52,756 nucleotides of DNA from Candidatus Aerophobota bacterium (GCA_030672545.1 DAOVGF010000021.1:1-52756); one strand, 5' to 3'. Shown: positions 6,281 through 26,492, numbered from the stretch's first letter. Numbers and translations are program-made. The notes: generated by a model from the letters alone, not told the origin.

Positions 6281-6402
6281 CGTAATAATTTAGATTTCAT
6301 AAAGGTAGCCACAAGTTTTAACTTGCGCAAAGGAGCCATGGTAGCCGCAACCTTTAGATTGCGCAAATAAACGCAGGCTAAAGCCTGCGTTTACCACTCT
6401 AT
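6281..6402. repeat. REP/REPIN-like cluster (locus a): 22-nt accessory module plus two forward and one inverted REP units
   Basis: The units are GTAGCCaCAAGTTTTAACTTGCGCAAA, GTAGCCGCAACCTTTAGaTTGCGCAAA and the inverted AAACGCAGGCTAAAGCCTGCGTTTACC, flanked by CCACTCTATC. A stretch of about 90 nt is near-identical to 15280-15370. Confidence 0.85.
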
Positions 6403-9705: not shown

Positions 9706-9706
9706 G

Positions 9707-10618
9707 ATGACCCGTCGACAATCCTACTGGAACTACCAATGGTACGAACCCACCCACCCTCGCCAGGTCAAGGGTGGAATTAAGGCCCGGTCTAAGCGGG
9801 GTGCTTTCGCCAGTAAATGGTGGGGTCGGCGCTGGATCCAGGTACTGGAAAGCTTCAATATTGGGGCTCGCCTCTCCAGAGGTCGTTCCTATGCCCGCCG
9901 AGGCCAGGTGGCGGATTTGAGTATCGAGAAGGGGGAGGTCCGGGCCCGGGTTCAGGGCTCTCGTTCCCAGCCCTACCGAGTAGTCATCAAACTTAAGACC
10001 CTGGCCAAGAAAGACTGGATTAGAGTGACAGCGAGTCTTACGGAGCGGCCAATCCTGGGGGCGCGGCTTTTGGCGGGCGAGATGCCGGAAGACATCGAAA
10101 CAGTATTCCAGAAGACTGGCCTTTCCCTCTTTCCCGGGAAGAGAGGTGATCTTGAAACAGATTGCTCCTGTCCGGACTGGTCCAACCCGTGCAAACACAT
10201 AGCCGCCGTGTATTATCTGCTGGCCGAGGCCTTTGACCAGGATCCCTTTTTGTTGTTGAAACTTCGTGGGATTACCCGAGAGCAGTTTATCTCCCTTCTA
10301 AGTGGAGTGGGGGGAACGGAGAAACAAAAGATAGATACCTCGGGCAAACCGGAGTGTTCTTCGTTTCCTCCCCAACCACTGCCGACTAATGGGGAGGCGT
10401 TCTGGAGGGGAGGTGAATCAGTAGTGTTTGACGCCGGACCGGTGGAGAAGTCTACTCTCACTGCCGTTCTTCCGAGAAGACTGGGGGCTTTCCCGTTCTG
10501 GCGCGGCCGGGAGGATTTTCTGGAGGTCATAGCGGCCATCTATCAAAAGGCTACTCTCGTCGGTGAAGCTGTCTGGGAAGGAGAATGCGGCCCGGCGAAG
10601 CCTGAGAGCAAGAGCTAA
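9707..10618 (+). CDS. SWIM zinc-finger protein
   Basis: CSCPDWSNPCKH matches the CxCxnCxH SWIM signature. The ATG lies one nt after the SNF2 stop (TGAgATG). Confidence 0.85.
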   Translation: MTRRQSYWNYQWYEPTHPRQVKGGIKARSKRGAFASKWWGRRWIQVLESFNIGARLSRGRSYARRGQVADLSIEKGEVRARVQGSRSQPYRVVIKLKTLAKKDWIRVTASLTERPILGARLLAGEMPEDIETVFQKTGLSLFPGKRGDLETDCSCPDWSNPCKHIAAVYYLLAEAFDQDPFLLLKLRGITREQFISLLSGVGGTEKQKIDTSGKPECSSFPPQPLPTNGEAFWRGGESVVFDAGPVEKSTLTAVLPRRLGAFPFWRGREDFLEVIAAIYQKATLVGEAVWEGECGPAKPESKS

Positions 10619-11913
10619 TCTGGAAAAAAATAGAGTTTATTCTGTAGTTTCCACAGGTTCATTAGAATACTTTCTTCAAATTCTACCTGACTTAGAGTAA
10701 GGTAATCACCTTTTTTCACCTCACTTTTCAGGACAGCCCCCTCCGCCAGACCCAGAGGTAAGAGGCTTTCCTGTCGGGAAACCGCGGCTCTTTCAATAGA
10801 TCCATAGATGTCAAACTTTCCTATACCATCAATTTTCTGCCCAACCTTCAAATCTCTTTTGGCCACAGTAATTACCTCGGCCACAGGTTTTCCCGAAGAG
10901 ACTATGGTTGGTTCCTGATAGATAACTGCTCGGGCTACCGAAAGAGGGACTTCTATACTGCAAAGATGATAAGGACGATAAAGAAGATAGTTGGGACCTT
11001 TTCCCATAGACATATATTTTAGGTCTCCTATTAGACGCTTATTATGGGTAGTTATCACCACAAAAACTCCCGGGGCTATTCGGCCAATGCCGTAGTCAAC
11101 TACTCCTGGTTGATTAAGAATCCCTCCTTTCTCCTTCAGGGCAAAAACAGAGGCAAGTTCTGAGGCATCGCACTTGGGACCATGCATTCCTCTCACATCC
11201 GGAATGAGACCGGTGGCGTTGGCCACGGCACACATCTCAATCATAGTTTTGCTGCCGTCCACAAATTCGCAGAGCATTCGGGGATTCACCCCTTGCTTTA
11301 AGGCAGTGCTTCGTAGACTATCCGGTGTTGCTTCCCGATCCAGGGGATTATTTTTCCCCTTTCCAGCCGCTACGATTTCAAATCCCAAAGCCCTGGCAAA
11401 ATCGTAAAGTTCCTTGATGACACCCGGCTCATCTCCTGCTCCTACCGTATAAACCACCCCAGCGCTCTGGGCCAGCTCAGAGAGAATGAGACCTACGGTA
11501 ACGTCGGTCTCCACATTCATCATAATAATATGTTTCTTCTTCCGTATTGCTTCTAGAGCCACTTCGGCTCCTACGCGGGGAGTCCCCGTAGCTTCAACTA
11601 TAACCTCAAGAGAAGTAAGGTGAGGAATAAGAGTAGCTTCTTCGCTTACCACCCGCATCCCCTTATTTAGGGCCTTATTACACTCCTCTGGATCATTTGA
11701 GCAAAAAATATCTTTTCGGGGAATTCCTATTTCCTCAAAAATATTTATGGCTCTTTCCCGGTCAAGGTCGGCCAGGGCTAAAACCTCCATGGCTTTCATC
11801 CGAGAGAGAACGCCGGCTACCCCCGCTCCCATTTGCCCTACTCCCACAATTCCTACCTGGATAGTCCGACCTTCTTTTTCTAACTGAGCTAATTTGTCAG
11901 GTAAATTCAGCAT
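10615..11913 (-). CDS. NAD(P)-binding dehydrogenase with C-terminal SAF domain (homoserine-dehydrogenase-like, COG4091-type)
   Basis: The Rossmann motif VGIVGVGQMGAG lies near the N-terminus. Length and C-terminal pattern fit SAF-domain oxidoreductases. Its stop codon overlaps the SWIM stop (CTAA). Confidence 0.65.
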   Translation of the reverse strand: MLNLPDKLAQLEKEGRTIQVGIVGVGQMGAGVAGVLSRMKAMEVLALADLDRERAINIFEEIGIPRKDIFCSNDPEECNKALNKGMRVVSEEATLIPHLTSLEVIVEATGTPRVGAEVALEAIRKKKHIIMMNVETDVTVGLILSELAQSAGVVYTVGAGDEPGVIKELYDFARALGFEIVAAGKGKNNPLDREATPDSLRSTALKQGVNPRMLCEFVDGSKTMIEMCAVANATGLIPDVRGMHGPKCDASELASVFALKEKGGILNQPGVVDYGIGRIAPGVFVVITTHNKRLIGDLKYMSMGKGPNYLLYRPYHLCSIEVPLSVARAVIYQEPTIVSSGKPVAEVITVAKRDLKVGQKIDGIGKFDIYGSIERAAVSRQESLLPLGLAEGAVLKSEVKKGDYLTLSQVEFEESILMNLWKLQNKLYFFPD

Positions 11914-11979
11914 TTGTAATTCTCCTTGAGAGTGAATTTAATTATGAACAAATTACTATCTATGGCTTGAGAACTACCT

Positions 11980-12195
11980 TCAGAGCCTCACCTCTCTAAC
12001 TATCCTGGCAATAACCTGCTGAATTTTTCTCCAGACAACATCAGCATCTTGCTCCGCCCAATGAGGATGAAGGCTGATGACCGGGTACTCCTCTCTTGCA
12101 AGAGCAAGTAACTCTCCCGGAGAATTGAAAAGGGCGGCTTTACACACTGTGGTTCCCAGATCAAGACTTAGAAAGGATACGGAATTTCCTCCCCA
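11980..12195 (-). pseudogene. Truncated N-terminal fragment of a second FGGY carbohydrate kinase
   Basis: A hand-verified translation in frame right after the upstream stop reads WGGNSVSFLSLDLGTTVCKAALFNSPGELLALAREEYPVISLHPHWAEQDADVVWRKIQQVIARIVREVRL*. It contains the FGGY DLGTT phosphate-1 motif and the WAEQD motif. A GGGGAGGA RBS is followed by GTA where a start codon is expected, so no start codon is present. Confidence 0.6.
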
Positions 12196-13710
12196 TCAAC
12201 TGCCTACGAGGCGATAACGTTCCCGAAAATCATCCTTAAGATGCTCATAAAGCCTTTTATACAGTTGAAAATAATTGCCGTAGAGCTGGTAGGCTTCCTG
12301 GTCCGGCTCGTTTTCACCCTTTACTGATAGCCAGTTCTTTACTTCCTCACCACTATGGATAAGCTTTGCTCCCATAGCGGCTAATACGGCATTCCCCAGA
12401 GGCGCTCCCTCTGATTCAGTGTAAGAAAGATGCATACCGGTAATATCTGCCAAAATTTGTCGCCAGATGGGGCTTCTACCCCCGCCATTAACGAGAGTTG
12501 CTTTTTTTACCTTAACTCCGTGACCAGCTATGATCTCTAACATATGCCGGTAGCGATAGCCAATAGATTCCAGCACCGCCCGGTAAAGATGTCCTCTATG
12601 GTGATTTAGGGTTAGGCCAAAGAAAACCCCTCGGGACAGCCGGTCCCAGTTAATGGTAAGCTCTCCGGCGAGAAATGGAAGAAACAGCAGTCCCTCCGCT
12701 CCCCGGGAGATACGGGAGGCTTCCAAATCCAACTGCGGGTAGGAAATATCAAATTGGTGTCCTGGTCCAGTTAGAACTTGCCGCAACCACTGAAGTGAGC
12801 CACCAGCATAAGAAGTAGCAAAGCTTATATATCGGTTGGGCAAGGCGTGAGAAGAGTTAATGAGACGGGGATCGAAGTTCGGCTCATCCATCGGTATAAG
12901 CAAATTTCCAGCCGTTCCCAGCATTACGCAGGCTTCTCCTTGAAGGTAAACCCCCGCTCCCAGGGTTGAGGAAGCAAAATCCCCACAACCAGTAACCACC
13001 GAGACTCTCTGGTCAAGGCCGGTTTCCTCGGCTGCCTTTTTGCTTATCCGGCCAACTACCTCATGCGAAGGTCTCAGGTCGGCCAGCATCTCCAGAGGAA
13101 TTCCCATTTTCTCGCTCATAGCGGGAGACCAACATTTTCTCCGGTAATCATAGAAGGGTACAGACAGATTACCGCAGGTGAAATCAGTCACCACTTTTCC
13201 GCAAAGTTTTAGGACAATGTAACTGTGGGCTTGGAGTAACTTCCAGGTTCTCCTGAAGGTATCCGGCTCGTGATGCTTTATCCACAGTACCTTGGGACCC
13301 CAATAGTAGTGATCGATCCGGTTGCCGGAAATCCGGAAACAAGCATCCGTCCCGATGTGCTCCTCCATCCAGGCACATTCTTGATCGGTCCGCCGGTCAC
13401 GCCAAATAATAGCTTTACGGAGGGGATTCCCCTGGTGATCTACCGGAAGACAGCAGGGTAGAAGACTACTCACTGATATGGCCGCAATATCCCCACCGGA
13501 CACTTTGGCTTTAGTAAGAGACTGCTGGATTATGTAACAGACTGCCTGCCACCAGTCCTCTCCATCGACCTCATCCCAGGAAGGATAGGGAGAGTGAATG
13601 GTATAGGGAAAAGAGGCCTTACCCAGGCATCTACCCCGAGGATCAAATACTCCGCCTTTCGCCTGAGAAGTCCCAATATCGATTCCCATTACCAGTTCGC
13701 GTCGACCCAT
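12196..13710 (-). CDS. FGGY-family carbohydrate kinase (xylulokinase/ribulokinase-like)
   Basis: GIDIGTSQAKG is at the N-terminus and NGGGRSPIWRQILADITG near the C-terminus. The 504-aa length is typical of FGGY kinases. Confidence 0.85.
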   Translation of the reverse strand: MGRRELVMGIDIGTSQAKGGVFDPRGRCLGKASFPYTIHSPYPSWDEVDGEDWWQAVCYIIQQSLTKAKVSGGDIAAISVSSLLPCCLPVDHQGNPLRKAIIWRDRRTDQECAWMEEHIGTDACFRISGNRIDHYYWGPKVLWIKHHEPDTFRRTWKLLQAHSYIVLKLCGKVVTDFTCGNLSVPFYDYRRKCWSPAMSEKMGIPLEMLADLRPSHEVVGRISKKAAEETGLDQRVSVVTGCGDFASSTLGAGVYLQGEACVMLGTAGNLLIPMDEPNFDPRLINSSHALPNRYISFATSYAGGSLQWLRQVLTGPGHQFDISYPQLDLEASRISRGAEGLLFLPFLAGELTINWDRLSRGVFFGLTLNHHRGHLYRAVLESIGYRYRHMLEIIAGHGVKVKKATLVNGGGRSPIWRQILADITGMHLSYTESEGAPLGNAVLAAMGAKLIHSGEEVKNWLSVKGENEPDQEAYQLYGNYFQLYKRLYEHLKDDFRERYRLVGS

Positions 13711-13721
13711 TACTTTTCCTG

Positions 13722-14810
13722 CTAACCTGATTTGTCTTTCTCACTTCTGAACCTGCGGTCTTCCCAGACCTCCGGATTGAGGAGAAATCGGGGTTGGCGA
13801 CCAGCCAGAAAATCTTCGATAGCCTCTCGGGCCAGAGGAGAAGCTATCCGATAACAATCATAACTGGCCCCGGCAATATGAGGAGTAAGCAGGACGTTAT
13901 CCAGATCCAGCAGGGGATAATCCGGAGGTAACGGCTCTTCTTCGAACACATCCAGAGCGGCACCGGCAATCTTCTTGTTCACCAATACCTCATTGAGAGC
14001 ATCGTAATCAACCACGGAAGCTCGGGCGGTATTAATGAAGTAAGCAGTGGGTTTCATTAGTGAGAAATAGTGTTTCCCCACCAGGCCACGAGTTTCGGGA
14101 CTGTCCTTGACGTGTACGGTCAGAAAATCCGATTCTCGGAAGAGAGTATCACCATCAACCAGCTTTACCCCATATTCTTTTCCCACTTCTGCTGAGACGT
14201 AAGGATCGTGGGCAATCATCGCTACCTTAAAACCCCGAGCTCGGCGGGCTACTTCCCGACCGATGGCCCCGAATCCGAGAATCCCCAGAGTCCGACCAGC
14301 CAATATGGGACCTTTGAAACGCAAGAAGGTAAAATTTCGAGGATCATTCATAATCCAGATATTATCACCTTTAGCAAAACCCTCTCGTTGGGGATTTTTC
14401 TCGGTCAGCTTTCGAGATTTAACCAGGCAGTGAGTTTCAGCAATATGTCGGACCAGGGCCACTATCACCCCCAGGGTAAAATCGGCTACCTGATCAGAGC
14501 CGCGACCAGGACAACAGGCCACGGGAATGCCTCTTTCGGTGACCGCTTCCAGGTTAATGTTGCGGCCGGCCCCCGCCCGTAGTGAGACTATTAGCTTCAG
14601 ATTGGGAGCGGCATCCAGTACCTTGGGCGTCACTTGATCAAATTCTACCACCAGAACATCAATGTTTTCCATCTCGACGGATAGTTCCTCCGGCTTAAGA
14701 ATCTTGGAACGCACATAAAGACCACGAACTCTTATCTCCTCAAAGTAAGACCTCAATATCTTGAGGTCTTCGGCCTCCAATCTACTGGTCAACAACAGTT
14801 TCATCTTCAA
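13722..14810 (-). CDS. D-isomer-specific 2-hydroxyacid dehydrogenase family protein
   Basis: GILGFGAIGREVARR is the NAD-binding motif and LTPHIAG is the catalytic His region. An insertion of about 40 aa is present in the substrate-binding domain. Confidence 0.85.
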   Translation of the reverse strand: MKMKLLLTSRLEAEDLKILRSYFEEIRVRGLYVRSKILKPEELSVEMENIDVLVVEFDQVTPKVLDAAPNLKLIVSLRAGAGRNINLEAVTERGIPVACCPGRGSDQVADFTLGVIVALVRHIAETHCLVKSRKLTEKNPQREGFAKGDNIWIMNDPRNFTFLRFKGPILAGRTLGILGFGAIGREVARRARGFKVAMIAHDPYVSAEVGKEYGVKLVDGDTLFRESDFLTVHVKDSPETRGLVGKHYFSLMKPTAYFINTARASVVDYDALNEVLVNKKIAGAALDVFEEEPLPPDYPLLDLDNVLLTPHIAGASYDCYRIASPLAREAIEDFLAGRQPRFLLNPEVWEDRRFRSEKDKSG

Positions 14811-15002
14811 AACCCCTTTAATTCTTTATCTGTCAAACCCAGCGTCCTAGCAGCCTGTTGAAAAACCCTCTTTTAGTATGAGTGATTCGAGCAGCAACTT
14901 TTGATTTTTCAGATGACACCGGGCCACTCAACCGATGGTCTGAGTATTTTGGAGAATATTACCCCGTACTTGTGGGGAATAACCTCGTTTGATAATGACT
15001 CT

Positions 15003-15032
15003 ATTATACCACAGATAAGGATTTATGTCCAA
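15003..15032 (-). promoter_or_regulatory. Candidate promoter for the 2-hydroxyacid DH/FGGY operon
   Basis: The minus strand reads TTGGAC, an 18-nt spacer, then TGgTATAAT (extended -10). It lies about 190 nt upstream of the ATG at 14810. Confidence 0.4.
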
Positions 15033-15209
15033 TTGAGACCCTCTTGAGAAAGAACAAAGTTAACCTAAGATGTCAGGAGACCATAGGAGGTTTTTCACCA
15101 GTCTTCTAGACCGGGTTCGGATATTACCATAGTAACTTTCTCGGCCATGCTGCTCAAAGTGATGGAGGCTGCCGAAATCCTCCACGTAAGTCTTTTAGGT
15201 CATAATTTC

Positions 15210-15238
15210 TTGACACAATGGGGAGGGGTATATAAAAT
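15210..15238 (+). promoter_or_regulatory. Candidate promoter for the RuBisCO-like protein gene
   Basis: TTGACA (15210-15215), a 17-nt spacer, then TAAAAT (15233-15238). It is divergent from the promoter at 15003-15032. Confidence 0.45.
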
Positions 15239-15279
15239 AGGCCAAGATTACGGGGAAATATGAAGCGGAGAGGGCAAAA

Positions 15280-15440
15280 GTAGCCGCAAGTTTTAACTTG
15301 CGCAAAGGAGCCATGGTAGCCGCAACCTTTAGGTTGCGCAAATAAACGCAGGCTAAAGCCTGCGGCTACCGGATCATAATAGAAGGGCTAAAGCCTACGG
15401 CTACCGGATCATAACCAAGGAGTTAAATCCTGCGCCTACC
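15280..15440. repeat. REP/REPIN-like cluster (locus b): two forward and three inverted REP units
   Basis: The forward units are GTAGCCGCAAGTTTTAACTTGCGCAAA and GGTAGCCGCAACCTTTAGGTTGCGCAAA. The inverted units are AAACGCAGGCTAAAGCCTGCGGCTACC, GGGCTAAAGCCTACGGCTACC and GGAGTTAAATCCTGCGCCTACC, separated by GGATCATAA spacers. Confidence 0.9.
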
Positions 15441-15498
15441 AATTGCCAGGAGACCAAAAAATTTTGATAACACTTACTAATGAGGGAGGATAATCCTA

Positions 15499-16788
15499 AT
15501 GGAAAAATATCGGGGAAGAGAAATTTTGGGAAGAGAACCCCGGGAAACCATTAACCTGGAATCCCGGCATAATCCGGAAGAATCTATTTCTTTGGTTTAC
15601 TATATTAAAACCCGGCAAGATCTGGTGAAAACAGCCAAAGAGATAGCCCGGGATGAGACTACCGGTAGTTGGATAGGTCAGAAGGCGGTAACTTCACTCT
15701 TTCGGAGGTCACAAGCCGACGTTTACAAGATTGAAAAGTATGGTCCTTCCGAAGGAGTTATTTACATCAGATCCCCCTTAAGTAACCTCAACCCGGAAGA
15801 GGGCCTTCTCTACCAGTTGATGATGTTAACTATTGGTGGGCCTGTTCTGGAATTTGTTTATTACGATGAGGTAGCTTTTCTTGACTTTGAACTTCCTTCG
15901 AAAATTCTCAGTTTTTTCCCCGGTCCTCAATTTGGTATTTCCGGAACTCGCAAATTACTGGGGCTTGGTCCTGAGGAACTCATTGTGGGGACGATTGTCA
16001 AACCCTGTGCTGGTCTCTCAGTTGAGGAAGTAGCGGAAAAATGCTATCAGGCAGCTCTGGGTGGGGTTAGATTTATCAAAGATGATGAGAAAATGCTGGG
16101 ACCGGAATATTGCCCTCAGGAGAAAAAAATTCGTTTGGTAACTGAAGCCCTGAAGAGAGCTTATGATAAAACAGGCCAAAATGTTCTTTACGCTCCCCAT
16201 CTAATAGCCAGTCCGGATAAAATGAGAGACTGGGCAAGAAAAGCTATTGATTGGGGAGTTACTGCCCTAATGTTTAATCCTCTAATAGCTGGAATGGGGT
16301 ATCTGGAAATGCTGGCCCGAGACAAAGAAATAAATGTTCCCCTTTATGCCCACAGCGGAGGAAGATCAGGTTGGTCAACCGGACCGCGTCGAGTTGATGA
16401 TGTGGTTCTGGCTAAGCTTTTACGTCTGGCTGGAGCGGATTACTTCCAAATTGGGGTTATGGGACAGGAAGAATGCCACATAGCTTCTCTCATACCCGAG
16501 CTCTTGTTGAGGCTCAAGGAGGTTTTCACCAATGATTGGGAAGGAATAGAAGATACCCTGCCGGTGGCGGCGGGAGGACTAAATGCCCGAAATTTGGTGG
16601 AAAATATCAAAGCCTTCGGAAGTAGTTTTATGGGGTTGGCCGGCTCCAGTATTCTAAAACACCCATTGGGAATAAAAGCAGGAGTAACGGCTATGAATCA
16701 GGCCGCTCAGGCTTTCAAGAAAGGGATTCCTCTGGAAGAATACGCTCAACAATGCCCTGAGCTAAAAACTGCTTTGCAAATGGAGTGA
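15499..16788 (+). CDS. RuBisCO large-subunit-like protein (form IV RLP), not a carboxylase
   Basis: ARDETTGSW, GTIVKPCAGL, FIKDDEK, LYAHSGG, PVAAGG and LAGSS align to RuBisCO signature blocks. K175, K201, D203, E204 and H294 equivalents are kept. K177->C, R295->S, H327->Q, S379->A and the GGG phosphate loop->GSS are substituted. Confidence 0.85.
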   Translation: MEKYRGREILGREPRETINLESRHNPEESISLVYYIKTRQDLVKTAKEIARDETTGSWIGQKAVTSLFRRSQADVYKIEKYGPSEGVIYIRSPLSNLNPEEGLLYQLMMLTIGGPVLEFVYYDEVAFLDFELPSKILSFFPGPQFGISGTRKLLGLGPEELIVGTIVKPCAGLSVEEVAEKCYQAALGGVRFIKDDEKMLGPEYCPQEKKIRLVTEALKRAYDKTGQNVLYAPHLIASPDKMRDWARKAIDWGVTALMFNPLIAGMGYLEMLARDKEINVPLYAHSGGRSGWSTGPRRVDDVVLAKLLRLAGADYFQIGVMGQEECHIASLIPELLLRLKEVFTNDWEGIEDTLPVAAGGLNARNLVENIKAFGSSFMGLAGSSILKHPLGIKAGVTAMNQAAQAFKKGIPLEEYAQQCPELKTALQME

Positions 16789-16874
16789 GATAGAGTGGTA
16801 GCCGCAGGCTTTAGCCTGCGTTTATTTGCGCAGCTTAAAAGCTGCGGCTACCTTTACGAAATCTAAACTATTAC
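16789..16874. repeat. REPIN-like doublet (locus c) plus 22-nt accessory module
   Basis: GATAGAGTGGTAGCCGCAGGCTTTAGCCTGCGTTTATTTGCGCAGCTTAAAAGCTGCGGCTACC is followed by TTTACGAAATCTAAACTATTAC. The element starts immediately after the RLP stop codon. Confidence 0.9.
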
Positions 16875-16883
16875 GAAAAATGT

Positions 16884-18815
16884 TCACTCGGACTTAATGA
16901 GCCGAGCGACTGTATCTACCAAAGTTTCTAGATCCAGCCCCTGGAGTTTAAATAATTCATCCGGTTTGCCTGAACCACCGTATTTAACCACTCCTAACTT
17001 GCGGAAACGGGGATTAAGAGAATTTTCAGCTAAGAAGTCAGCAATAATGCTCCCCAGACCGGTATGAACATTGTGATCCTCGTAAGTAACTACTACTCCT
17101 GTATCGGCTGCCTCTTGTAGAGTGGACCTATCCAATTTACTCAAGCAGGAGACATTTATCACCTTAACCCGATACCCTCTCTCTCTGAGAATTTCTCCAG
17201 CTTTAACTGCCCGATGTACCATACCTCCGCTGGCAATAATAGCTCCATCCTTACCATCTCTTATCAAATCAGCTTTTCCGTACTCAAATTGGTAGTCTCC
17301 AGCGAAAAACGGTTCTCCTTCTTCACTCAAGATGGCCGGAAGTTTGGAACGTCCCGCAGCCAGGAGAAAATTCCCCGGCTGAGTGGCTAGATATCTTACG
17401 GCCCGGTCGGTTTGATTGGGATCAGCGGGAATAATTATTTTGTATCCATAAAGATTACGCATTATACCTACATAATCAATACACTGGTGAGTCTTCCCAT
17501 CCTGACCCACATCAATGCCGTTGTGAGTACAAATTAGTTTTAGATTAGCTTTATTGATGTCATTTAAACGATGCTGATTGTAAGTCTCATCCACACCAAA
17601 AACACCAAAATCAGCAAAAAAGGCGATTATCCCCTCAACAGAAAGAGCGCCCGCAACAGTAGCAGTATTATGTTCCTGTATTCCTGCCTCAAAGAAGTAG
17701 GTGGGATAGCTATCAGCAAAACCATTAGTTTTCACGGAACTCAAGAGGTCACAGTCCAGCACCACCATCGGCGTTCGGCCCTCTCGGCCACAGTTTCTCT
17801 CTCCCAAATCCTTAAGAGCTCTCCCGAAAGCTCCTCGATTATCCATTTTATCCTCGGCTTTATAGGTAATAGGTTGGCCGGTATCAAAATTAATCTGCCA
17901 GAGAGGATTTTTTCTTCGATATTTCTCAGTTTCCACAGCCTGGCGTAGATCAATGTATTTCTCCAGGTCATCCTCAAGGTTGAGTTGAGAAAGGGCACCA
18001 CGGCATTGTTTTAGGGAAAGAGGCATCCCGTGAAACTGGCATTTATTCTCCATAAAGCTGATGCCTTTACTCATAGTAGTGTGAGCCAAAATCATCACCG
18101 GACTTTTTTCATTTCTCACCGCCTGACCCAGGGCTTGATAAATCTCTTGATAGTTGTGGCCATCAATTTCCAAGACTTCCCAACCGTCAGATTGATAGTT
18201 CTCCTTAATATTCTGAGGCATAATCTCGGACAGAGGGCCGCTTAATTGAATCCGGTTGTAATCAATAATCACGGTGATATTGGTTAGAGTATGCTTACGG
18301 GCAAACCGGCGGGCTTCTCCTATTTGACCCTTGGCTTGTTCCCCATCGCCCATTACCACAAAAACCTGCCAGTTTTTCTTATGGACTCGAGCGGCCAAAG
18401 CAAATCCGCATCCGGCTGAAAGTCCCTGGCCCAGATTACCGGTACTCCATTCCACTCCGGGCACATCCCGCTCGATATGTCCCTCAAAGATACCCCCCGT
18501 CTTACGAAATCCACTAATCACACTATCCAGATCAAAGAATCCCAACCGGCCCAGAGCAGCATAAACTCCGGGAGAAGTATGACCATGACTGATCACAATT
18601 CGGTCTCTCTCCGGGTAATTAGGATTATCAGGGTAAATATTGGCACAGTGATAAAGGGTAAGGTAAATATCAATGGAAGACATAGAGCCTCCCGGATGAC
18701 CGGAACCGGCTACGGTGGTCATTTTTAAAATATCACCCCTGGCTAATCTACCCAACTCTTTGAGTTTATTTAATTCCTCTTCCCCCAACCTTTCTTTATT
18801 AAATTCCCATGACAT
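16884..18815 (-). CDS. tkt: Transketolase (single-chain, N and C halves fused)
   Basis: The motifs GSGHPGGSMS and RDRIVISHGH are present, with GDGEQAKGQIGEA as the ThDP-binding site. The 643-aa length fits. Confidence 0.88.
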   Translation of the reverse strand: MSWEFNKERLGEEELNKLKELGRLARGDILKMTTVAGSGHPGGSMSSIDIYLTLYHCANIYPDNPNYPERDRIVISHGHTSPGVYAALGRLGFFDLDSVISGFRKTGGIFEGHIERDVPGVEWSTGNLGQGLSAGCGFALAARVHKKNWQVFVVMGDGEQAKGQIGEARRFARKHTLTNITVIIDYNRIQLSGPLSEIMPQNIKENYQSDGWEVLEIDGHNYQEIYQALGQAVRNEKSPVMILAHTTMSKGISFMENKCQFHGMPLSLKQCRGALSQLNLEDDLEKYIDLRQAVETEKYRRKNPLWQINFDTGQPITYKAEDKMDNRGAFGRALKDLGERNCGREGRTPMVVLDCDLLSSVKTNGFADSYPTYFFEAGIQEHNTATVAGALSVEGIIAFFADFGVFGVDETYNQHRLNDINKANLKLICTHNGIDVGQDGKTHQCIDYVGIMRNLYGYKIIIPADPNQTDRAVRYLATQPGNFLLAAGRSKLPAILSEEGEPFFAGDYQFEYGKADLIRDGKDGAIIASGGMVHRAVKAGEILRERGYRVKVINVSCLSKLDRSTLQEAADTGVVVTYEDHNVHTGLGSIIADFLAENSLNPRFRKLGVVKYGGSGKPDELFKLQGLDLETLVDTVARLIKSE

Positions 18816-18865
18816 TTTTTACTCTCCCTTACTGGTAGCCAACCCTATTTTATAGCCTCAGCGAC

Positions 18866-19063
18866 TTATTCTTCCTGGTAGTGAATGGCTTCCGCTGGAC
18901 AGTCCTCCGCGGCTTCCTTTATCTCATCTTCAAATGCATTGAAGTCAGCATCATCCTTTACTTTAGCTGTATCATTTACTTCAAAAACTTCCGGACAGGT
19001 ATCCTCGCAAAGACCACAGACAGTGCAGAGATCCTGGTCAATCTTCACTTTAGTGATGGCCAT
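18866..19063 (-). CDS. Small single-cluster ferredoxin
   Basis: The 65-aa acidic protein carries CTVCGLCEDTCP plus a distal CP motif. Confidence 0.8.
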   Translation of the reverse strand: MAITKVKIDQDLCTVCGLCEDTCPEVFEVNDTAKVKDDADFNAFEDEIKEAAEDCPAEAIHYQEE

Positions 19064-19260
19064 GATTTTCCTCCTTTTTTTCCATCAAGTCTTCTTAAAC
19101 CCCATTTTTGTCATAGAGAATAGCAAGGAGGAAAAAAATGTCAAATCGATGAGGCTGTATATTAACCAGATATATTAACCAGAAAAGTTATCTTAGATGT
19201 TGAATACAAAGGGATTAAAGGAGATACCTTTCCGGGTTAAAGTTATGATAGGGATCCAAA

Positions 19261-21150
19261 TTACGGTATCATTATCCATATAGGAGAAGTCCAGGCTATT
19301 TCTCCGTTACACTGTTGAACCCGAAGGTAATAGAATTCTACCCCGCTTTGCTTCTTAGGCCGGAGGGAGAATTCAACCTGTTCGGATAAAGATCCTCCTC
19401 CCGGCAATGAGATGGTTTCATTGTCCCTGATCAATTCAATTTTTTCGATTACGTCGCTTCCAGCGATAGAAACAGTTATTTTTAGAGGAGCTCCCGGACT
19501 TACCTGTATTTGCTCTCCCATGAAGTGTCCATTGATTCTAAAATCAATGATTATTCTGTCGCCAGTAGTTCCATAACACCTTCTTTGGCGAATAGCTTCA
19601 AAGATAGACTCTCTGGTTAACTCAGGGGCCATAATGGCAGTTAGGCCTCCTCGGTGATAACTTAGATTTAAGTAAGGACTTCGGTATTGTCCACCACCGG
19701 GCATTCCACCATGATTATCGCTGCCACATATAAAACCAAATTTGTACCCTCGGCTCAGTATTTCTTGCACAGAAAGACCTCCCTTCCAAAACTGGCCGCT
19801 GTCTTTTTCCTTAGAACCAACCCACAAAGGATTTCCTCTATACTCGGAACTCCCCCAGCAGGAATAGATTTCCACTACGGGTTCTAAATCTTTATTGAAA
19901 TTGTAATTCATACAGGCCAGGGGATGATGGGGAATTACTATGGCTTCTATTCCCTTTAGAGCATTCCATAACTCTTTGGCCGTGCGATAAGGAGTGTCTG
20001 TCTGGTTATTCCGGCCACCCTGCATAGGGGCAAGGTTACTATACCTAAATATGGGGGGATCATCATCAACGAAGTAGACATTTCTATTTCCGTCCTCCTC
20101 CCAATTAGTCCATTCATAGCCAATCAAGGTTACAAATTCACCAGGTTTATGGTACCTGTTGGTTATTTCTTTAAATTTTTTCCATCCGTCATCCGTCATT
20201 CCTGGCCCCCAATCATGGTTGCTGATGGAAGTGAAATCGAGTTTTTGTACATCCCGACAGTACGGGTAGATATCTTCCGGAGTTTTTCTCCCATCACACA
20301 AGGAAGAATGGATGTGGATATCACCCCAATAAACATTCCATTCAGGTTTATCTTTTACCACGATGGGATTACTCCTGCCATATAATCCGTTTCTGCTTCT
20401 AATTTCAATATGATAAGAACCGGGTTTTTCGAATTTAATATTTTTTACTACTTTTATCCGGGAAGATTTTTTCTCAATAGGGTAGTGCTGATTTGGCCAA
20501 GCCAAATTTTCTATTTCTTCGTCTTCCGGAAAGGGGGAATCGTACCCAAAGCGGTCAATTCCTATTACATTCAAATTAAAGCTATTACCCAAGGGGACAA
20601 TAGAGGGAGCAATGGGCATCAAAGCCACTGGTCTGCCGGAAAGTATTTTTCCTTTCCAACGATGGTTTTCTTTAATGCTTTGATACTGTCCTCTTCCCTC
20701 AAAGTCGACCCATACTAAAAAGTAAAGAGAGGGACTGCCCCACCATTTTTCGTCATTTTCAAAATAATCCTGAGGGTAGGTCTGACACAGGCTTCCTATG
20801 CTTCCTTCCCTGGTATCTCCGTAGATAATCCTTATTTTATCTCCTTCCACCAGGTGACCTTCTTTGAGTTTCACATATAGATATTGAAAGGCATTAGGGT
20901 TAGAGGAAATTCCTAAGGATGTTTCTAAATCTGCCTGGCTATTTGTGGAAATAGTCGTGTATCCCTCGAGCTGGGGATTCTTCAGTTGAAATGAACTCCA
21001 GATGCGGGGTAGAGATATACGGATTCCTCCTCCCTTCTTTATTCTGGTCTTTCCACAAATATACTCTATTCTCCAGGTGTTTAGTTCTCCTCCTATCAAA
21101 GGACGATTTGGAGATAGAGTAGCATAACCTAATTTTTCTGCTTGGTTCAT
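19261..21150 (-). CDS. DUF3604 / CehA-McbA-like PHP-superfamily metallohydrolase with ~270-aa N-terminal beta-rich domain
   Basis: The metal-ligand motifs WGDIHIHSSLCDG, SNHDW, IPHHP and CGSDNHGG are present. The C-terminal YYLRVQQCNGEIAWTSPIW resembles the typical DUF3604 ending. Confidence 0.65.
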   Translation of the reverse strand: MNQAEKLGYATLSPNRPLIGGELNTWRIEYICGKTRIKKGGGIRISLPRIWSSFQLKNPQLEGYTTISTNSQADLETSLGISSNPNAFQYLYVKLKEGHLVEGDKIRIIYGDTREGSIGSLCQTYPQDYFENDEKWWGSPSLYFLVWVDFEGRGQYQSIKENHRWKGKILSGRPVALMPIAPSIVPLGNSFNLNVIGIDRFGYDSPFPEDEEIENLAWPNQHYPIEKKSSRIKVVKNIKFEKPGSYHIEIRSRNGLYGRSNPIVVKDKPEWNVYWGDIHIHSSLCDGRKTPEDIYPYCRDVQKLDFTSISNHDWGPGMTDDGWKKFKEITNRYHKPGEFVTLIGYEWTNWEEDGNRNVYFVDDDPPIFRYSNLAPMQGGRNNQTDTPYRTAKELWNALKGIEAIVIPHHPLACMNYNFNKDLEPVVEIYSCWGSSEYRGNPLWVGSKEKDSGQFWKGGLSVQEILSRGYKFGFICGSDNHGGMPGGGQYRSPYLNLSYHRGGLTAIMAPELTRESIFEAIRQRRCYGTTGDRIIIDFRINGHFMGEQIQVSPGAPLKITVSIAGSDVIEKIELIRDNETISLPGGGSLSEQVEFSLRPKKQSGVEFYYLRVQQCNGEIAWTSPIWIMIP

Positions 21151-21165
21151 CTTCCACTCCTGCGG

Positions 21166-22011
21166 TTATTCTTTCAAGGCTCCTCGCACTAATCCGGCGA
21201 TGAGATATTTATTCACTACTATGGAAAAAATAATTATGGGGAGCATAATAAAGGTACTACCGGCAGCAATCGTTCCCCAGCGGATATCTATGAATCTCAT
21301 AAATACGGTAACCGCAACCGGAGCTGTTTGGGATACTCTCCGGGTAAGAATTAGAGCATATAGAAACTCGTTCCAGGACATAATCCAACAGAATATGGTT
21401 GTAGCAGCTAAACCGGGACTCACCAGGGGTAGACTGATTTTCCAGAAACAGCCCCAGGTAGAACATCCATCGATGACCGCTGCTTCTTCTAAAGACAAGG
21501 GTACGTCATCAAAAAATGTTCGCATAATCCAGACTACCAGTGCCAGATTAAAGGTTAAGTAGATGATAATGAGAGCAAGATGGGAGTCTAAAAGATGCAC
21601 CTGCTTAAAAAATAGAAAAAATGGTACCAATAAAGCCATGGGAGGGATCATCCGGCTGGTCAAAATCCAGAAATAAATAAACTTGGCTCCCCGAATATCA
21701 ATTCGGGAAAGAGCATAAGCGGCGGGAACTCCCAGGATAAGAGATAAACCGACCACGCACCCACTAATGATAAAACTATTCAAAATATTGTACTGAAAGT
21801 GCTGAACCCGGAACAGTTCGAGGTAATTTTTTAGAATCGGCTTGAAGATCCAAACAGGAGGTACAGAAAGAATATCTACCGGATTCTTAAAGGAAGTGGC
21901 CATGAACCAGTAGATGGGGAAAATAAAAATAGCGGTAACCATAATGACAAACGCATAAAAAAAGATTCTTCGGATTGTTCGGTGATAGGGACGAAGTTGT
22001 ATTGTTTCCAT
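21166..22011 (-). CDS. Carbohydrate ABC transporter permease (CUT1, MalG/UgpE-like)
   Basis: Six TM segments are predicted. The EAA-type loop is LEEAAVIDGCSTWGCFWKISLP. Confidence 0.9.
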   Translation of the reverse strand: METIQLRPYHRTIRRIFFYAFVIMVTAIFIFPIYWFMATSFKNPVDILSVPPVWIFKPILKNYLELFRVQHFQYNILNSFIISGCVVGLSLILGVPAAYALSRIDIRGAKFIYFWILTSRMIPPMALLVPFFLFFKQVHLLDSHLALIIIYLTFNLALVVWIMRTFFDDVPLSLEEAAVIDGCSTWGCFWKISLPLVSPGLAATTIFCWIMSWNEFLYALILTRRVSQTAPVAVTVFMRFIDIRWGTIAAGSTFIMLPIIIFSIVVNKYLIAGLVRGALKE

Positions 22012-22019
22012 CTTTTATC

Positions 22020-22898
22020 TCATTTCAATTTTGAGGTACCAATGATGCCTACGCTTAGCAGGATGCAGATGGCAAAAATGGTGAAGCTTAAAGCCGAGCC
22101 GTATCCAAATCTGCTGTACTGAAAGGTAGTCCGAAAAGCATAGAAATTCATAATTTCGGTAGCGGTTCCCGGTCCACCCTCGGTCATAATAAAGATTTTG
22201 GGAAAGATTTTAATAATATCAACGGCTCGGAAGAGAAGGGTAATAATAATAACGGGTTTCAACAGGGGGAGCAAGATATAGCGAAGGATTTGTAATTGAT
22301 TAGCCCCGTCAGCCTGGGCAGCTTCAGAAAGTTGTTCCGGGATACTGGCTAAACCGGCCGTAAACATAAGGATAACAAAGGGCATCCACTCCCAGGTGTC
22401 AACCAGGGCGATGGTAAGCAAAGCAGTTTTGCTGCTGGCCAGCCAGGCAGTATGGATACCTACTAAACTTAAGAGATAACTCACCATTCCCAGGCGAGGT
22501 TGAAGGAACATGCGCCACATAACCCCGACGACTACTGGTGGCGAAACCATGGGAAGCAAGAGGAGCATCCGGAAGATTTTTTTCCCTTTGAAAACACGGT
22601 TTAGTCTTTCGGAGATAAGTAGTCCCAGGGAGATTTGTATACCCACGGCCATCCCAATTAAAAAAAGAGCCAGGGCTACAGAGTTCCAGAATCGGGTGTC
22701 ATGCATCATTTTGGTGAAGTTGCCGAAAAGGATAAATGTTTTCTCGGCAGCTCCAAACTCCCACTTATGCAGGCTGGACCAGAAAAGATATATCAGGGGA
22801 GGGATAGTAACTGCAATCAGTACGACAAGAGCGGGCATGAGCATGACTAAAAGAGTCTGTCTCTTTTGTATAAAGATATTATTTGCTTTTGAGTTCAT
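22020..22898 (-). CDS. Carbohydrate ABC transporter permease (CUT1, MalF/UgpA-like)
   Basis: Six TM segments are predicted. The EAA loop is LSEAAQADGANQLQILRYILLP. Confidence 0.9.
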   Translation of the reverse strand: MNSKANNIFIQKRQTLLVMLMPALVVLIAVTIPPLIYLFWSSLHKWEFGAAEKTFILFGNFTKMMHDTRFWNSVALALFLIGMAVGIQISLGLLISERLNRVFKGKKIFRMLLLLPMVSPPVVVGVMWRMFLQPRLGMVSYLLSLVGIHTAWLASSKTALLTIALVDTWEWMPFVILMFTAGLASIPEQLSEAAQADGANQLQILRYILLPLLKPVIIITLLFRAVDIIKIFPKIFIMTEGGPGTATEIMNFYAFRTTFQYSRFGYGSALSFTIFAICILLSVGIIGTSKLK

Positions 22899-22966
22899 TT
22901 TCGAGTTTACTTTTCGTACTTGGTTCTGGGAGAGGATTAATCCCCTCCCAGAACTATAATTTTCCT

Positions 22967-24334
22967 CTAGAAACCAAATTGTGAGCTAGGTTTGCCCACA
23001 TAACCTGCTTCCTGGAGAATTCCCAGAATTACCTCATTGGCCGAATCAAGAGCTTTTTGAGGGGTTTGGTCACCCGTAATAATGTTCTGAAGTGCAATAC
23101 CTAAGGTATCTCCTATTTCTTTGTACTCGGGTAAATTATAGGGAACAAAATAGGGATTCTCTACTGCCGAAGCAATTTTCAGTGATGCAGCATTTATCCC
23201 ACCCCAGTCACCAAAGTCAAAGGTGATGGCGTATCGTGGATCTTCCAGAGTACTTGTTCGGGTCACCGATCCTCCACCAAAGAGCAGGGCCCGCTTCAGT
23301 TGAAATTCTTTGCTGGTCATATATTGAAGGAAAAGCCAGGCGGCTTCCTTGTGTTGGGCCACGCGAGGAATCATAAGACCGTGCGTGTAGTGGCTGAATT
23401 GGTGTTTAACTGGACCCTTGGTCAGCATGGCTGCTTTCCATTTGCCCACCACTTTTGATTTCTCTGAATCGTTAAAAGTTTTTCCCCAAGGTCCCGCATC
23501 CTCGATCATGACGAGCTGCCCTTGAGCAAAATCCTGCACCAGTTCGTAATGTTTGTAGGCTCCTATTCCGCTGGGTCCATACTTATTATTGAGGCCGGCA
23601 TAGAAGGTAGTAGCTTTGATCCATTCCTCGGTATTTACGGTAGGACGCATGGAATCGTCAAAATAACTGCCTCCAAAAGATCCGCCGTAACGACCGAAAC
23701 TCCACATGTTGATTCCGTATCCCCGTACCGATCTGAGAGCAATGGAAGGAATATCCTTGGTATAGACTTTCTTACAAATATCTTCCATCTCCGCAAATGT
23801 CTTAGGAGGACCGGGAATACCGTATTTCTCGTAGAGGTCGGTTCTGTAGTAAATCAAGCCGGTTTCGGTGGACCAGGGTAGCCCGAGAATCTGCTCATCT
23901 TTATCGGTTAGTGCTCGGAGAGCATTATAGACAAAGTCGTCAAGATCAAAATCAGGACCGGTTAAACTGGGGTCATTAATGTATTTCTGCAGTGGTTCTG
24001 CCCAGTTTCTCCTGGCGTATCTAGCCGTTTTCCATAAGCCCATATGCATAAGATCGTATGCTCCGGTCTCGGCGGCCAGTTCTGTCTCGGCTTTGATGTC
24101 CATTTGTCTCCGAACCAGGAGATCGAACTGAACCTTGATTCCTGTTTCCTCTTCAAATTGTTTGTAAATAGGAAGAGTGGCTTCGATATCAGGGTGAAAA
24201 TTTACCAGAATATAAACTGTCTGTCCCTGGTAGGGTTCCGCGGCTTTCTTCCAGCTCCACTCCTGGGCTTGGGCCGGAACTACTAATAGACAAAATAATA
24301 TCGTCACCAAAAACCATAAGCCTATCTTTTTCAT
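22967..24334 (-). CDS. Extracellular solute-binding protein (family 1, sugar-type) of the ABC importer
   Basis: I chose the start at MKKIGLWFL (ATG 24334-24332), preceded by a GGAGA RBS. The ORF track begins 15 codons earlier. The signal peptide ends at PAQAQE. Confidence 0.85.
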   Translation of the reverse strand: MKKIGLWFLVTILFCLLVVPAQAQEWSWKKAAEPYQGQTVYILVNFHPDIEATLPIYKQFEEETGIKVQFDLLVRRQMDIKAETELAAETGAYDLMHMGLWKTARYARRNWAEPLQKYINDPSLTGPDFDLDDFVYNALRALTDKDEQILGLPWSTETGLIYYRTDLYEKYGIPGPPKTFAEMEDICKKVYTKDIPSIALRSVRGYGINMWSFGRYGGSFGGSYFDDSMRPTVNTEEWIKATTFYAGLNNKYGPSGIGAYKHYELVQDFAQGQLVMIEDAGPWGKTFNDSEKSKVVGKWKAAMLTKGPVKHQFSHYTHGLMIPRVAQHKEAAWLFLQYMTSKEFQLKRALLFGGGSVTRTSTLEDPRYAITFDFGDWGGINAASLKIASAVENPYFVPYNLPEYKEIGDTLGIALQNIITGDQTPQKALDSANEVILGILQEAGYVGKPSSQFGF

Positions 24335-24648
24335 TTTTTTCTCCTTTCCCCATATGGTTGCCCTATAGAGGTTTCTCACTAAACGATTTACTTGGATATT
24401 CCTTTTCCTTGGAGCTTTAGTCTATCTATGTCCAAGTTAGATGGTTTTGCTATTTCCTCACCTCCTTGTCGACTCTTATTGTAACCTAACAAGTTATCTT
24501 TAATACCAAAGATATAATTTATTGTCAAGACAGTGCCACGTCAGAAAAGTCTTGAGGGCGGTTTTCTCCCCGAGATTTTTCCTGAAACCGGAGAGAGGTA
24601 CCGTTGACCGGTGACAGTTTAAATGCTACTCTAATTAAGAGGGTAGGA

Positions 24649-26465: not shown

Positions 26466-26492
26466 ATTTCTACCTTCGAGTCGTGGTAGCCA

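Follow-up and report, generated by a model that had tools for sequence, protein, structure and literature searches.

The gene for a RuBisCO-like protein (RLP) at 15499-16788 (plus strand) is packed among sugar-transport and carbohydrate-enzyme genes in this Candidatus Aerophobota window (the whole stretch of DNA analysed, 52,756 nucleotides), which raises the question of whether the RLP is the centre of a new pathway. A sequence-only reading had proposed that three units form one such RLP-centred pathway. Its gene calls were all borne out by Pfam and NCBIfam profile matches, and so was form IV, but the single pathway was not. Our results suggest, with a probability of about 0.65, that several carbohydrate modules, independent of one another, are assembled here as a mosaic without the RLP as its centre, a deletion having brought the RLP next to the dehydrogenase unit.

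The protein carries both RuBisCO superfamily domains (RuBisCO_large PF00016, 161 bits; RuBisCO_large_N PF02788, 24 bits against a cut-off of 20.7). With P. horikoshii RuBisCO and G. kaustophilus MtnW as references for the active site, K175 and the metal site K201/D203/E204 (K194, D196 and E197 in the RLP) were found to be retained. K177 is replaced by Cys170, R295 by Ser, H327 by Gln, K334 by Glu and S379 by Ala, and H298 is also missing. Since these six catalytic or binding residues of form III are replaced, RuBP carboxylation is not expected. With the carbamylatable Lys201 and Asp203/Glu204 kept and the residues essential for RuBP carboxylation gone, the protein is, on its sequence, a form-IV RLP and not a carboxylase, in agreement with the sequence-only reading. 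None of the curated cut-offs (MtnW, OiaX, form III) is even approached by the scores of the RLP, whose identity to each of these groups is about 30%. Thus, a bona fide form III RuBisCO (TIGR03326, 200 bits against 497; six residues replaced), an MtnW/YkrW DK-MTP-1-P enolase (NF007095, 189 against 409; TIGR03332, 149 against 514) and an OiaX/OiaC apiose RLP (NF042437, 164 against 700) were all rejected. Note that genuine OiaX controls score 741-771 with the latter model, and that true OiaX genes (L071-L087) were retrieved by the same peptide pattern.

Its sequence places the RLP in an uncharacterised subfamily, here named A, that is well separated: 200 of 200 neighbour-joining bootstraps set this subfamily apart from the references for form III, MtnW, OiaX and RLP2, as the claim that the RLP is neither MtnW nor an apiose enzyme had anticipated. 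The subfamily's signature PKCKDEHSRQ.AGGS (the 'KPC' motif) is common to the window RLP and 33 loci at 44-67% identity. The positions are P123, K175, C177, K201, D203, E204, H294, [S/C]295, [R/L]298, Q327, A379, G381, G403 and [S/T]404, plus Y204-C205 and R297-R298 in window numbering. The hosts of these 33 loci include uncultured Planctomycetota, Poribacteria and Omnitrophota. The gene is intact and under purifying selection: its dN/dS against the sister strains is 0.11-0.17, the same as that of the neighbouring genes.

The MtnW/YkrW 2,3-diketo-5-methylthiopentyl-1-phosphate enolases of Bacillus and Geobacillus (2oek, 2zvi) have the same fold and, like the RLP, keep K175, carbamyl-Lys201 and Asp203/Glu204, so the enolisation chemistry is probably shared. 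They differ in overall identity (about 30%), in position 177 (Met; Cys in the RLP), in the 294-298 and 327-334 segments, and in their methionine-salvage partners. As predicted, the Pfam and NCBIfam scan of the window ORFs found none of MtnA/K/B/X/D, and none was found among the recurrent neighbours in 68 orthologue loci. OiaX/OiaC are reportedly the 3-oxo-isoapionate-4-phosphate decarboxylase RLPs of D-apiose catabolism. The window RLP shares with OiaX the KDDEKM motif and the carbohydrate setting, but the two are 28-33% identical, split in 200/200 bootstraps, and carry KP[S/A/N] and HRWQK (OiaX) versus KPC and HSRQE (window). The DUF1537 kinase that goes with OiaX is absent from the window, which has an FGGY kinase instead, as had been noted. 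The RLP of Rhodospirillum rubrum is said to be a 5-methylthio-ribulose-1-phosphate 1,3-isomerase, and would be the best mechanistic analogy, a ketose phosphate being isomerised through an enediolate without carboxylation. However, it belongs to another clade (non-MtnW RLP structures score 82-116 bits) and the window has no cupin partner. Form III RuBisCO, the archaeal pentose-bisphosphate type, gives the best PDB match (P. horikoshii 2cwx, 160 bits) and the best NCBIfam score (200 bits), and PfkB kinases are frequent neighbours of the family; it is only 29% identical to the window RLP, with the six replacements described above.

If the surrounding genes worked with the RLP, linkage should be conserved in its orthologues, a check that the sequence-only reading had itself proposed. 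We analysed 68 non-redundant orthologue loci (40-67% identity; flanks of 454 + 464 kb, about 0.9 Mb), 34 of which extend 5 kb or more to either side, grouping the neighbours by unbiased clustering and labelling them with Pfam and NCBIfam. The linkage was absent: no homologue of the DXR-II-like protein (DRL), the transketolase or the solute-binding protein (SBP) lay within 10 kb of the RLP in any of the 68 loci, and matches to FGGY, 2-hydroxyacid dehydrogenase (2-HADH) and PfkB proteins were sporadic and 24-35% identical. The closest orthologues (65-67%) lie among other metabolic genes, in the order RLP-PFK-class II aldolase-1-PFK/LacC-like kinase in two loci (L001, L008) and ketose-bisphosphate aldolase-RLP-PfkB in a third (L005). 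A kinase or aldolase association is seen in only 5 of the 33 subfamily A loci; the strongly conserved neighbourhoods are mostly those of sister subfamily B, whose RLPs are adjoined by cupins.

The sister strains L088, L089 and L098, three separate assemblies at 93-97% nucleotide identity, suggest how the RLP came to lie beside the dehydrogenase gene. In these strains 8-9.5 kb separate the 2-HADH gene from the RLP, a block that codes for a second ABC importer, a SorC regulator, an MtnW-like RLP2 and PDH-E1-like alpha/beta; one strain has an aldo-keto reductase (AKR) there as well. In the window, the 2-HADH gene (13722-14810, minus strand; 2-Hacid_dh_C 183 bits), 97% nucleotide identical to its counterpart in L098, is followed by a 266-bp filler (14842-15107) without a blastn match in L088 or L098, bounded by the 21-nt inverted repeat I7 (14847-14867 / 15089-15109). 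Mapping the breakpoints by blastn against L088 and L098 identified, next to it, 77 nt from the interior of a PDH-E1-beta-like gene (15108-15184, plus strand), 97-98.7% identical to L088:8150-8226 and L098:9217-9293; both counterparts sit inside intact 325-aa Transket_pyr/Transketolase_C genes. The RLP and the dehydrogenase gene are indeed divergently oriented, but the 690-bp spacer taken for a divergent promoter is a deletion scar. As part of the preferred reading, and with the same degree of belief, the RLP owes its place beside the 2-HADH/FGGY/DRL unit solely to the deletion, in this lineage, of about 8.5 kb that its sisters kept; the junction is seen in a single MAG contig and might be an assembly artefact. 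In either case, deletion or mis-assembly, the adjacency is not ancestral. On the other side, the transketolase, ferredoxin, DUF3604 and ABC genes adjoin the RLP in 3 of 3 sister strains; since these represent one species-level lineage, the kept adjacency says little either way.

The RLP gene also has signals of its own. A promoter-like site, TTGACA-17-TAAAAT (15210-15238, plus strand; 11/12 consensus, a consensus match only), lies upstream and is kept in L088, there upstream of an AKR-RLP pair. REP-like palindromic repeats (families D1-D3 and I1-I6) occupy 15276-15455; the window has 6 copies of their core 24-mer where 0 are expected. After the RLP, 16796-16867 contains a further REP-like palindrome and a terminator-like hairpin (16803-16820) followed by a T-run.

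On the other flank, the minus strand carries a single-chain transketolase (16884-18815; NF004556 999 bits, cut-off 575), a 65-aa 4Fe-4S ferredoxin (18866-19063; Fer4_13, E 8e-11), a DUF3604/CehA-McbA PHP-type metallohydrolase (19261-21150; PF12228 77 bits against 20, NF038032 91 against 80), whose N-terminal ~270 residues had no match in the profile searches, two CUT1-type permeases (21166-22011 and 22020-22898; BPD_transp_1) and a CUT1 extracellular SBP (ORF 22967-24379; SBP_bac_1 125 bits). The SBP and two permeases make this a CUT1 ABC sugar importer; the ATG at 24334, chosen as the SBP start in the sequence-only reading, precedes a signal-peptide-like start. The described lack of an ATPase gene was confirmed, with no ABC_tran gene in 10.6-27.5 kb; the sole one of the window (31866-32729) is part of an NMT1-type system. 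The ATPase of CUT1 importers is often encoded elsewhere. The genes of the proposed minus-strand unit (24334-16884) stand, but they may form two units, since a TG-extended promoter-like site (10/12 match) precedes the ferredoxin gene at 19144-19117. A PfkB-family sugar kinase (24604-25629, plus strand; PfkB 175 bits), below all NCBIfam cut-offs and syntenic in all three sister strains, is encoded divergently from the SBP.

These genes provide the strongest competitor to the mosaic, namely that the RLP acts with the DUF3604/CehA hydrolase and the ABC importer, the substrate being perhaps a sugar phosphate or a cyclic phosphate, and the DRL, FGGY and 2-HADH genes being accidental. The sole recurring partner family of the RLP is a distant CehA/McbA hydrolase, 188 bp upstream on the same strand in L014 (NF038032 243 bits) and within 2.4-9 kb in four other loci (L017, L019, L003, L016). 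Its presence next to an RLP in another lineage makes a functional tie with the DUF3604 module possible, and the window protein matches the same NCBIfam domain and keeps its adjacency in the sister strains. However, the two hydrolases are just 20% identical (E 3e-5), two independent lineages account for the recurrence in the 33 subfamily A loci, and the closest RLP orthologues have no such hydrolase. Conversely, the order SBP-permease-permease-(Fe-ADH)-DUF3604 is found again around the nearest homologues of the DUF3604 protein (65% and 44% identity), with neither a transketolase nor an RLP nearby. We consider this association unlikely, though it fares better than the other alternatives.

The unit beyond the scar, on the minus strand, comprises the 2-HADH gene, a xylulokinase-like FGGY kinase (12196-13710; FGGY_N and FGGY_C domains; TIGR01312 XylB 338 bits, below the cut-off of 380), a 55-aa FGGY remnant (11980-12147; FGGY_N positions 12-62, E 1.7e-8) and an NAD-binding/SAF oxidoreductase of the DXR-II/DRL family (10615-11913). 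The remnant had been taken for a decayed second FGGY copy; it does exist, but since it is just 25% identical to the adjoining kinase it is what is left of another paralogue rather than the product of a recent duplication. The DRL protein is placed in the DXR-II family by its catalytic domain (DRL_cat PF21135, 229 bits) and its similarity to Brucella DXR-II (3upy; 42% identity, 347 bits). G121, T229, H250, R320, V351 and others separate DXR-II from DLO1/DLO2 (PMC3847144), and 14 of the 16 diagnostic positions are identical in the window protein. [quoted passage not shown] The PDH-E1-like alpha/beta enzyme would make or cleave a 1-deoxy-ketose for the FGGY kinase to phosphorylate; the interconversion of DXP and MEP would fall to the DXR-II-like enzyme, and RLP2 would supply this pool as well, following the pattern of the R. 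rubrum MTA-isoprenoid shunt. Consistent with this, DRL homologues are adjoined by E1 alpha/beta genes in three unrelated loci and by FGGY genes in seven. Precedents count in its favour as well: E. coli xylulokinase accepts 1-deoxyxylulose as a substrate for phosphorylation, and DXP lies downstream of the R. rubrum RLP. In addition, mutations in E. coli aceE (PDH E1) can take the place of DXS (PMC3424233). Against it, the same diagnostic residues occur in every DRL homologue sampled, a set without a DLO control that extends to sugar/polyol loci of the gut, where ABC, SIS-domain and Zn-ADH genes are present, and may therefore not discriminate DXR-II. In addition, RLP2 is MtnW-like and not of the R. 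rubrum type, the window lacks E1 alpha/beta and RLP2, and its own RLP shows no tie to DXP/MEP chemistry. Among the DRL homologue loci examined, 11 contain a Zn-ADH and none an RLP.

A single pathway of import, oxidation, FGGY phosphorylation, RLP chemistry and transketolase-mediated entry into the pentose-phosphate pool is the least probable reading, and very improbable indeed: the genes are physically packed, each product is a plausible carbohydrate enzyme and the RLP-transketolase-DUF3604-ABC order is held in three sister-strain assemblies, but the partners do not co-occur in 68 orthologue loci, a deletion created the dehydrogenase/RLP adjacency, DRL-FGGY and ABC-DUF3604 recur without an RLP, the RLP has its own promoter- and terminator-like sites, and the FGGY-DRL unit is decaying, with an FGGY remnant and its usual E1 alpha/beta partner lost. 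A D-apiose route reportedly runs through an apulose kinase and an apulose-4-phosphate transketolase, and in the window, likewise, a kinase (FGGY) and a transketolase accompany an ABC sugar importer. However, the window transketolase is a generic single-chain equivalog, never a companion to RLP or DRL orthologues in the loci compared, and kinase and transketolase lie in separate, non-syntenic units.

In the favoured mosaic, four modules may be distinguished: the CUT1 importer with its DUF3604/CehA-type metallohydrolase, a pairing kept elsewhere; a ferredoxin-transketolase pair; a putatively monocistronic RLP with its own promoter- and terminator-like sites, flanked by REP-like palindromes; and a truncated 2-HADH/FGGY/DXR-II-like unit, which in other genomes is partnered by Zn-ADHs and by a TPP enzyme of the PDH-E1-like alpha/beta kind. 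The RLP would stand alone, unrelated modules having come to adjoin it after the deletion, and so no new RLP-built pathway would be encoded here. With a preserved enolising machinery (K175 as base, carbamyl-Lys201, and Asp203/Glu204 for Mg2+), it may act on a phosphorylated ketose, probably a bisphosphate, isomerising or epimerising it in a reaction of the enolisation type. From the metabolic genes beside the closest orthologues we infer ketose-bisphosphate chemistry, in which PFK or PfkB-type kinases would make the substrate of the RLP and a class II ketose-bisphosphate aldolase would receive it.

The genes named in the sequence-only reading were all present where it had placed them, as judged by ORF listing and profile scans, and its assignment of 15499-16788 (plus strand) to a form-IV RuBisCO-like protein (RLP), not a carboxylase, was borne out by the active site. 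The 429-aa protein could be aligned over its full length with both form III RuBisCO and MtnW. It retains K175 (K168), the carbamyl-lysine Lys201 (K194), Asp203/Glu204, His294, Gly380/381 and Gly403, and it carries the replacements N123->Pro, K177->Cys, R295->Ser, H298->Arg, H327->Gln, K334->Glu, S379->Ala and G404->Ser. Taken together, the kept and replaced residues identify an RLP: the superfamily's enolisation apparatus is intact, and those residues that serve specifically in carboxylation and for the second phosphate of RuBP are replaced. The protein scored 200 bits on the form III NCBIfam model (cut-off 497), 189 on MtnW (cut-off 409) and 164 on OiaX (cut-off 700), with 29-31% identity to representatives of each. 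Note that the OiaX model does discriminate, since genuine OiaX proteins reached 741-771 bits in the same genome scan. In a search of 1.84 billion representative proteins, scores above 230 bits were limited to about a dozen clusters (50% identity), and the best solved structure reached 160 bits. No description of this clade or its neighbourhoods was found in the literature searched. RLP functions are mostly unassigned, and every solved case has been an unexpected sugar-phosphate chemistry.

We collected flanks of up to 10 kb around RLP orthologues, from one genome per species and from metagenome contigs, and searched the ORFs with each window protein. The 68 non-redundant loci (with flanks totalling 454 + 464 kb, and of 5 kb or more on each side in 34 of them) split into two subfamilies by active-site signature. 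Subfamily A (KPC, HS/C-R/L, Q327, AGG-S/T, YC, RR) includes the window RLP and comprises 33 loci with 44-67% identity, in Planctomycetota, Poribacteria, Omnitrophota, Ratteibacteria and unclassified MAGs; its invariant replacements are C170, R289 and R297/R298. It was separated in 200/200 neighbour-joining bootstraps (run in numpy) from a reference set limited to form III, MtnW, OiaX and RLP2, the last being a second RLP of the sister strains. A clade defined by the Y204-C205 motif alone was rejected, being monophyletic in 0/200 bootstraps, and the fuller signature was adopted. Subfamily B (KPT, HC-K/R-R, SGGT) comprises 35 loci, mainly from Anaerolineae.

The sequence-only reading had tentatively joined the RLP and two flanking units into one sugar pathway, and had taken a lack of conserved linkage in related genomes to mean accidental adjacency. 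Such linkage was absent. None of the 68 loci contained homologues of the DXR-II-like protein (DRL, see below), the transketolase (16884-18815) or the binding protein (22967-24334); FGGY kinase matches had 26-34% identity and were confined to subfamily B, 2-hydroxyacid dehydrogenase (2-HADH) matches occurred in 2 loci, and PfkB matches were 24-29% identical to the window PfkB (24604-25629). Unbiased clustering of the neighbours across the 68 loci recovered these recurrent families: PfkB (18 loci), cupin (12), URO-D-like (11), mannitol dehydrogenase and GFO/IDH/MocA (10 each), FGGY (8), LacD/DeoC aldolase (7), ribulose-phosphate epimerase and PFK (6 each), and also class II aldolase and GatZ-like proteins.

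The closest subfamily A orthologues, in L001 and L008 (67% identity), lie in the order RLP-PFK-class II aldolase-like-1-PFK/LacC-like kinase, and in L005 (65%) the order is ketose-bisphosphate aldolase-RLP-ribokinase-like PfkB. In L021 and L024 a GatZ-like gene precedes the RLP, and in the rest of subfamily A the neighbours are housekeeping genes or genes for glycosidases and lactate permeases. It is in subfamily B that gene order is tightly conserved, as PfkB-FGGY-LacD-RLP and as cupin-mannitol dehydrogenase-RLP-PfkB; these neighbourhoods are good targets for function discovery. The subfamily B loci L031-L067 (e.g. L051, L055, L065, L067; L044-L046, L072) come from Anaerolineae and Pelolinea, and the PfkB-FGGY-LacD aldolase-RLP group faces a xylose-isomerase-like TIM barrel and an rbs-type ABC importer. 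In the Poribacteria locus L006 (contig WJIO01000321.1, 3724-10428), one called gene of 2234 aa matched Pfam domains of three RNA polymerase subunits, namely alpha (RNA_pol_A_bac, RNA_pol_L), beta (Rpb2 domains) and beta-prime (Rpb1_1), and is thus an unusual fusion or an error of gene calling.

Next, we compared the window with sister strains, known from three assemblies of different samples (L088 and L089 from ENA, L098 from JGI), whose RLP is about 96% identical to that of the window at the protein level. Rightward, the DNA is 93-97% identical through the RLP, transketolase, ferredoxin, DUF3604, ABC, PfkB and formyltransferase-like genes. Between 2-HADH and RLP, the sister strains carry on one strand two permeases, a binding protein and a SorC-type regulator and, next on the strand of the RLP, RLP2, E1-alpha and E1-beta, with an aldo-keto reductase only in L088. 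RLP2 is MtnW-like (371 bits on NF007095, cut-off 409; 288 bits with PDB 3fk4) and 30% identical to the window RLP, and the E1 pair resembles PDH/acetoin dehydrogenase. In L088 (5284-8533) and L098 (6351-9600), the E1 alpha and beta genes come directly after RLP2, which also has the KPC motif, in the same orientation, and the second CUT1 importer and SorC regulator lie beside them; E2 and E3 genes are absent from this block. To our knowledge, an RLP and an E1-type TPP enzyme have not been described together in any pathway.

In the window, the spacer between 2-HADH and RLP measures 690 bp and has three parts. The first (14842-15107, 266 bp) is without a sister counterpart and has a 21-nt inverted repeat at its borders; it may be what is left of a MITE or IS through which a deletion occurred. 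The second (15108-15184, 77 nt) is all that the window keeps of the sisters' RLP2-E1 genes and matches an inner stretch of their intact E1-beta gene at 97-98.7% identity. The third is the sisters' own RLP-upstream sequence, in which a TTGACA-17-TAAAAT promoter-like site lies together with REP-like palindromes. That the sister block is an insertion was rejected, because a gene fragment cannot predate the insertion of its gene; the comparison indicates instead that about 8.5 kb was lost by the window lineage, at a junction known from one MAG contig. The divergent orientation of the RLP and the left-hand unit, described in the sequence-only reading, is thus secondary, a product of this deletion.

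What remains of that unit (minus strand, 10615-14810) resembles a truncated DRL-FGGY-E1 alpha/beta module, given the company that DRL homologues keep elsewhere. The gene at 10615-11913, called before an NAD/SAF dehydrogenase, is real and now refined to the DRL_cat/DXR-II family (PF21135, 229 bits; 42% identity to the Brucella DXR-II structure 3upy). Among 21 loci with DRL homologues (41-74% identity), an FGGY kinase adjoined in 7, Zn-dependent alcohol/polyol dehydrogenases in 11, and a 58%-identical 2-HADH in one; in three unrelated loci E1-alpha/beta genes lay directly downstream, with 52-57% identity to the sister-strain E1. RLP, transketolase and DUF3604 genes were beside none of the 21. 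A metagenome scan with the DRL protein returned 20 loci, none of the window's own lineage. The E1 genes, regulator and transporter of the unit would have been lost with the deletion, and its second kinase is already a relic: the FGGY remnant (55 aa, FGGY_N positions 12-62) is indeed decayed, but it is no copy of the adjacent kinase, since 25% identity points to a different paralogue. DXR-II-like genes (L094, 5436-10405; L114, 4197-7589; L115; window, 10615-13710) thus repeatedly adjoin xylulokinase-like FGGY kinases (7 loci) and PDH-E1-like alpha/beta pairs (3 loci), in surroundings of Zn-ADH and sugar ABC genes; behind this association there may be a way of making or using DXP/MEP without DXS, or a pathway for a branched polyol. 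To the left, the carbohydrate region ends at an SNF2-family helicase (1046 aa) directly followed by a SWIM zinc-finger protein (303 aa; together 6565-10618), whose end overlaps that of the DRL gene.

On the right, the genes of the long minus-strand unit stand, and a promoter-like site ahead of the ferredoxin gene suggests that this may be two units. The nearest homologues of the DUF3604 protein (65% and 44% identity) lie in the order binding protein-permease-permease-(Fe-ADH)-DUF3604; next come a sulfatase, or URO-D-like and SDR genes, and not ferredoxin, transketolase or RLP. With a profile built from DUF3604 homologues, we detected CehA/McbA hydrolases near other RLPs: in L014 a gap of 188 bp separates a 483-aa PHP hydrolase (NF038032, 243 bits) from the RLP that follows it on the same strand, and the distance is 2.4 kb in L017 and L019 and 9 kb in L003 and L016. 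Since these five loci are one lineage and their hydrolase is 20% identical to the window DUF3604 protein, the evidence amounts to two independent lineages, and the association is suggestive, not significant. The N-terminal ~270 residues of the DUF3604 protein (19261-20070) are without a Pfam or NCBIfam match, as are the N-terminal ~185 residues of the L014-type hydrolase. Beyond the binding protein, PfkB is joined by a Formyl_trans_N-like and a 350-aa HAD-like protein in an unusual co-directional trio (24604-27545), kept in all sister strains; the best, weak matches of this PfkB are ribose-1-phosphate kinases, and as a candidate orthologue of the PfkB kinases flanking RLPs elsewhere it shares only 24-29% identity with them.

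The possibility that the RLP is a decaying orphan was rejected: its reading frame is intact, and its dN/dS against the sister strains (0.11-0.17) equals that of transketolase, DUF3604 and PfkB. These values and a terminator-like REP hairpin 3' of the gene argue for a maintained and probably monocistronic gene. A REP-like palindromic element with the core GGTAGCCGCAGGCTTTAGCCTGCG and a full length of about 57-76 nt has six intergenic copies in the window, with 0 expected (cores at 6372-6395, 15347-15370, 16797-16820, 30321-30344, 36581-36604 and 52598-52621); those either side of the RLP form a 56-nt inverted pair. An Rfam scan of the whole window found no riboswitches, three tRNAs being the sole matches.

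Finally, the RLP would abstract a proton next to the carbonyl of a phosphorylated ketose and reprotonate it, as an isomerase or epimerase, or would catalyse a related enediolate reaction. Judging by what adjoins the closest orthologues, a kinase and a class II aldolase, the substrate may be a ketose 1,6- (or 1,5-) bisphosphate, a substrate class that we infer tentatively and consider less likely than not. The most far-reaching reading, to which we give a probability of 0.35, is that subfamily A, with its invariant Cys for Lys177 and new invariant Arg289/Arg297/Arg298, would catalyse a reaction undescribed in the RuBisCO superfamily, acting on a ketose bisphosphate in a kinase-RLP-class II aldolase route, with a CehA/McbA-type PHP hydrolase maybe accessory and the window RLP an expressed stand-alone copy.

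An RLP-centred pathway is thus not supported, and the window reveals no new one: conserved linkage to the proposed partners is absent from the orthologue loci, and the RLP's adjacency to the left-hand unit came from a deletion. It is a cautionary case, in which close gene packing, seen in one MAG contig, gave the look of a pathway organised like an operon, and strain comparison exposed a deletion artefact. The remaining interest lies in subfamily A, a populous, uncharacterised RLP group with a distinctive active site. Better entry points for assigning function are offered by the comparison loci, RLP-PFK-aldolase-kinase for subfamily A, and PfkB-FGGY-LacD-RLP and cupin-mannitol dehydrogenase-RLP for subfamily B.
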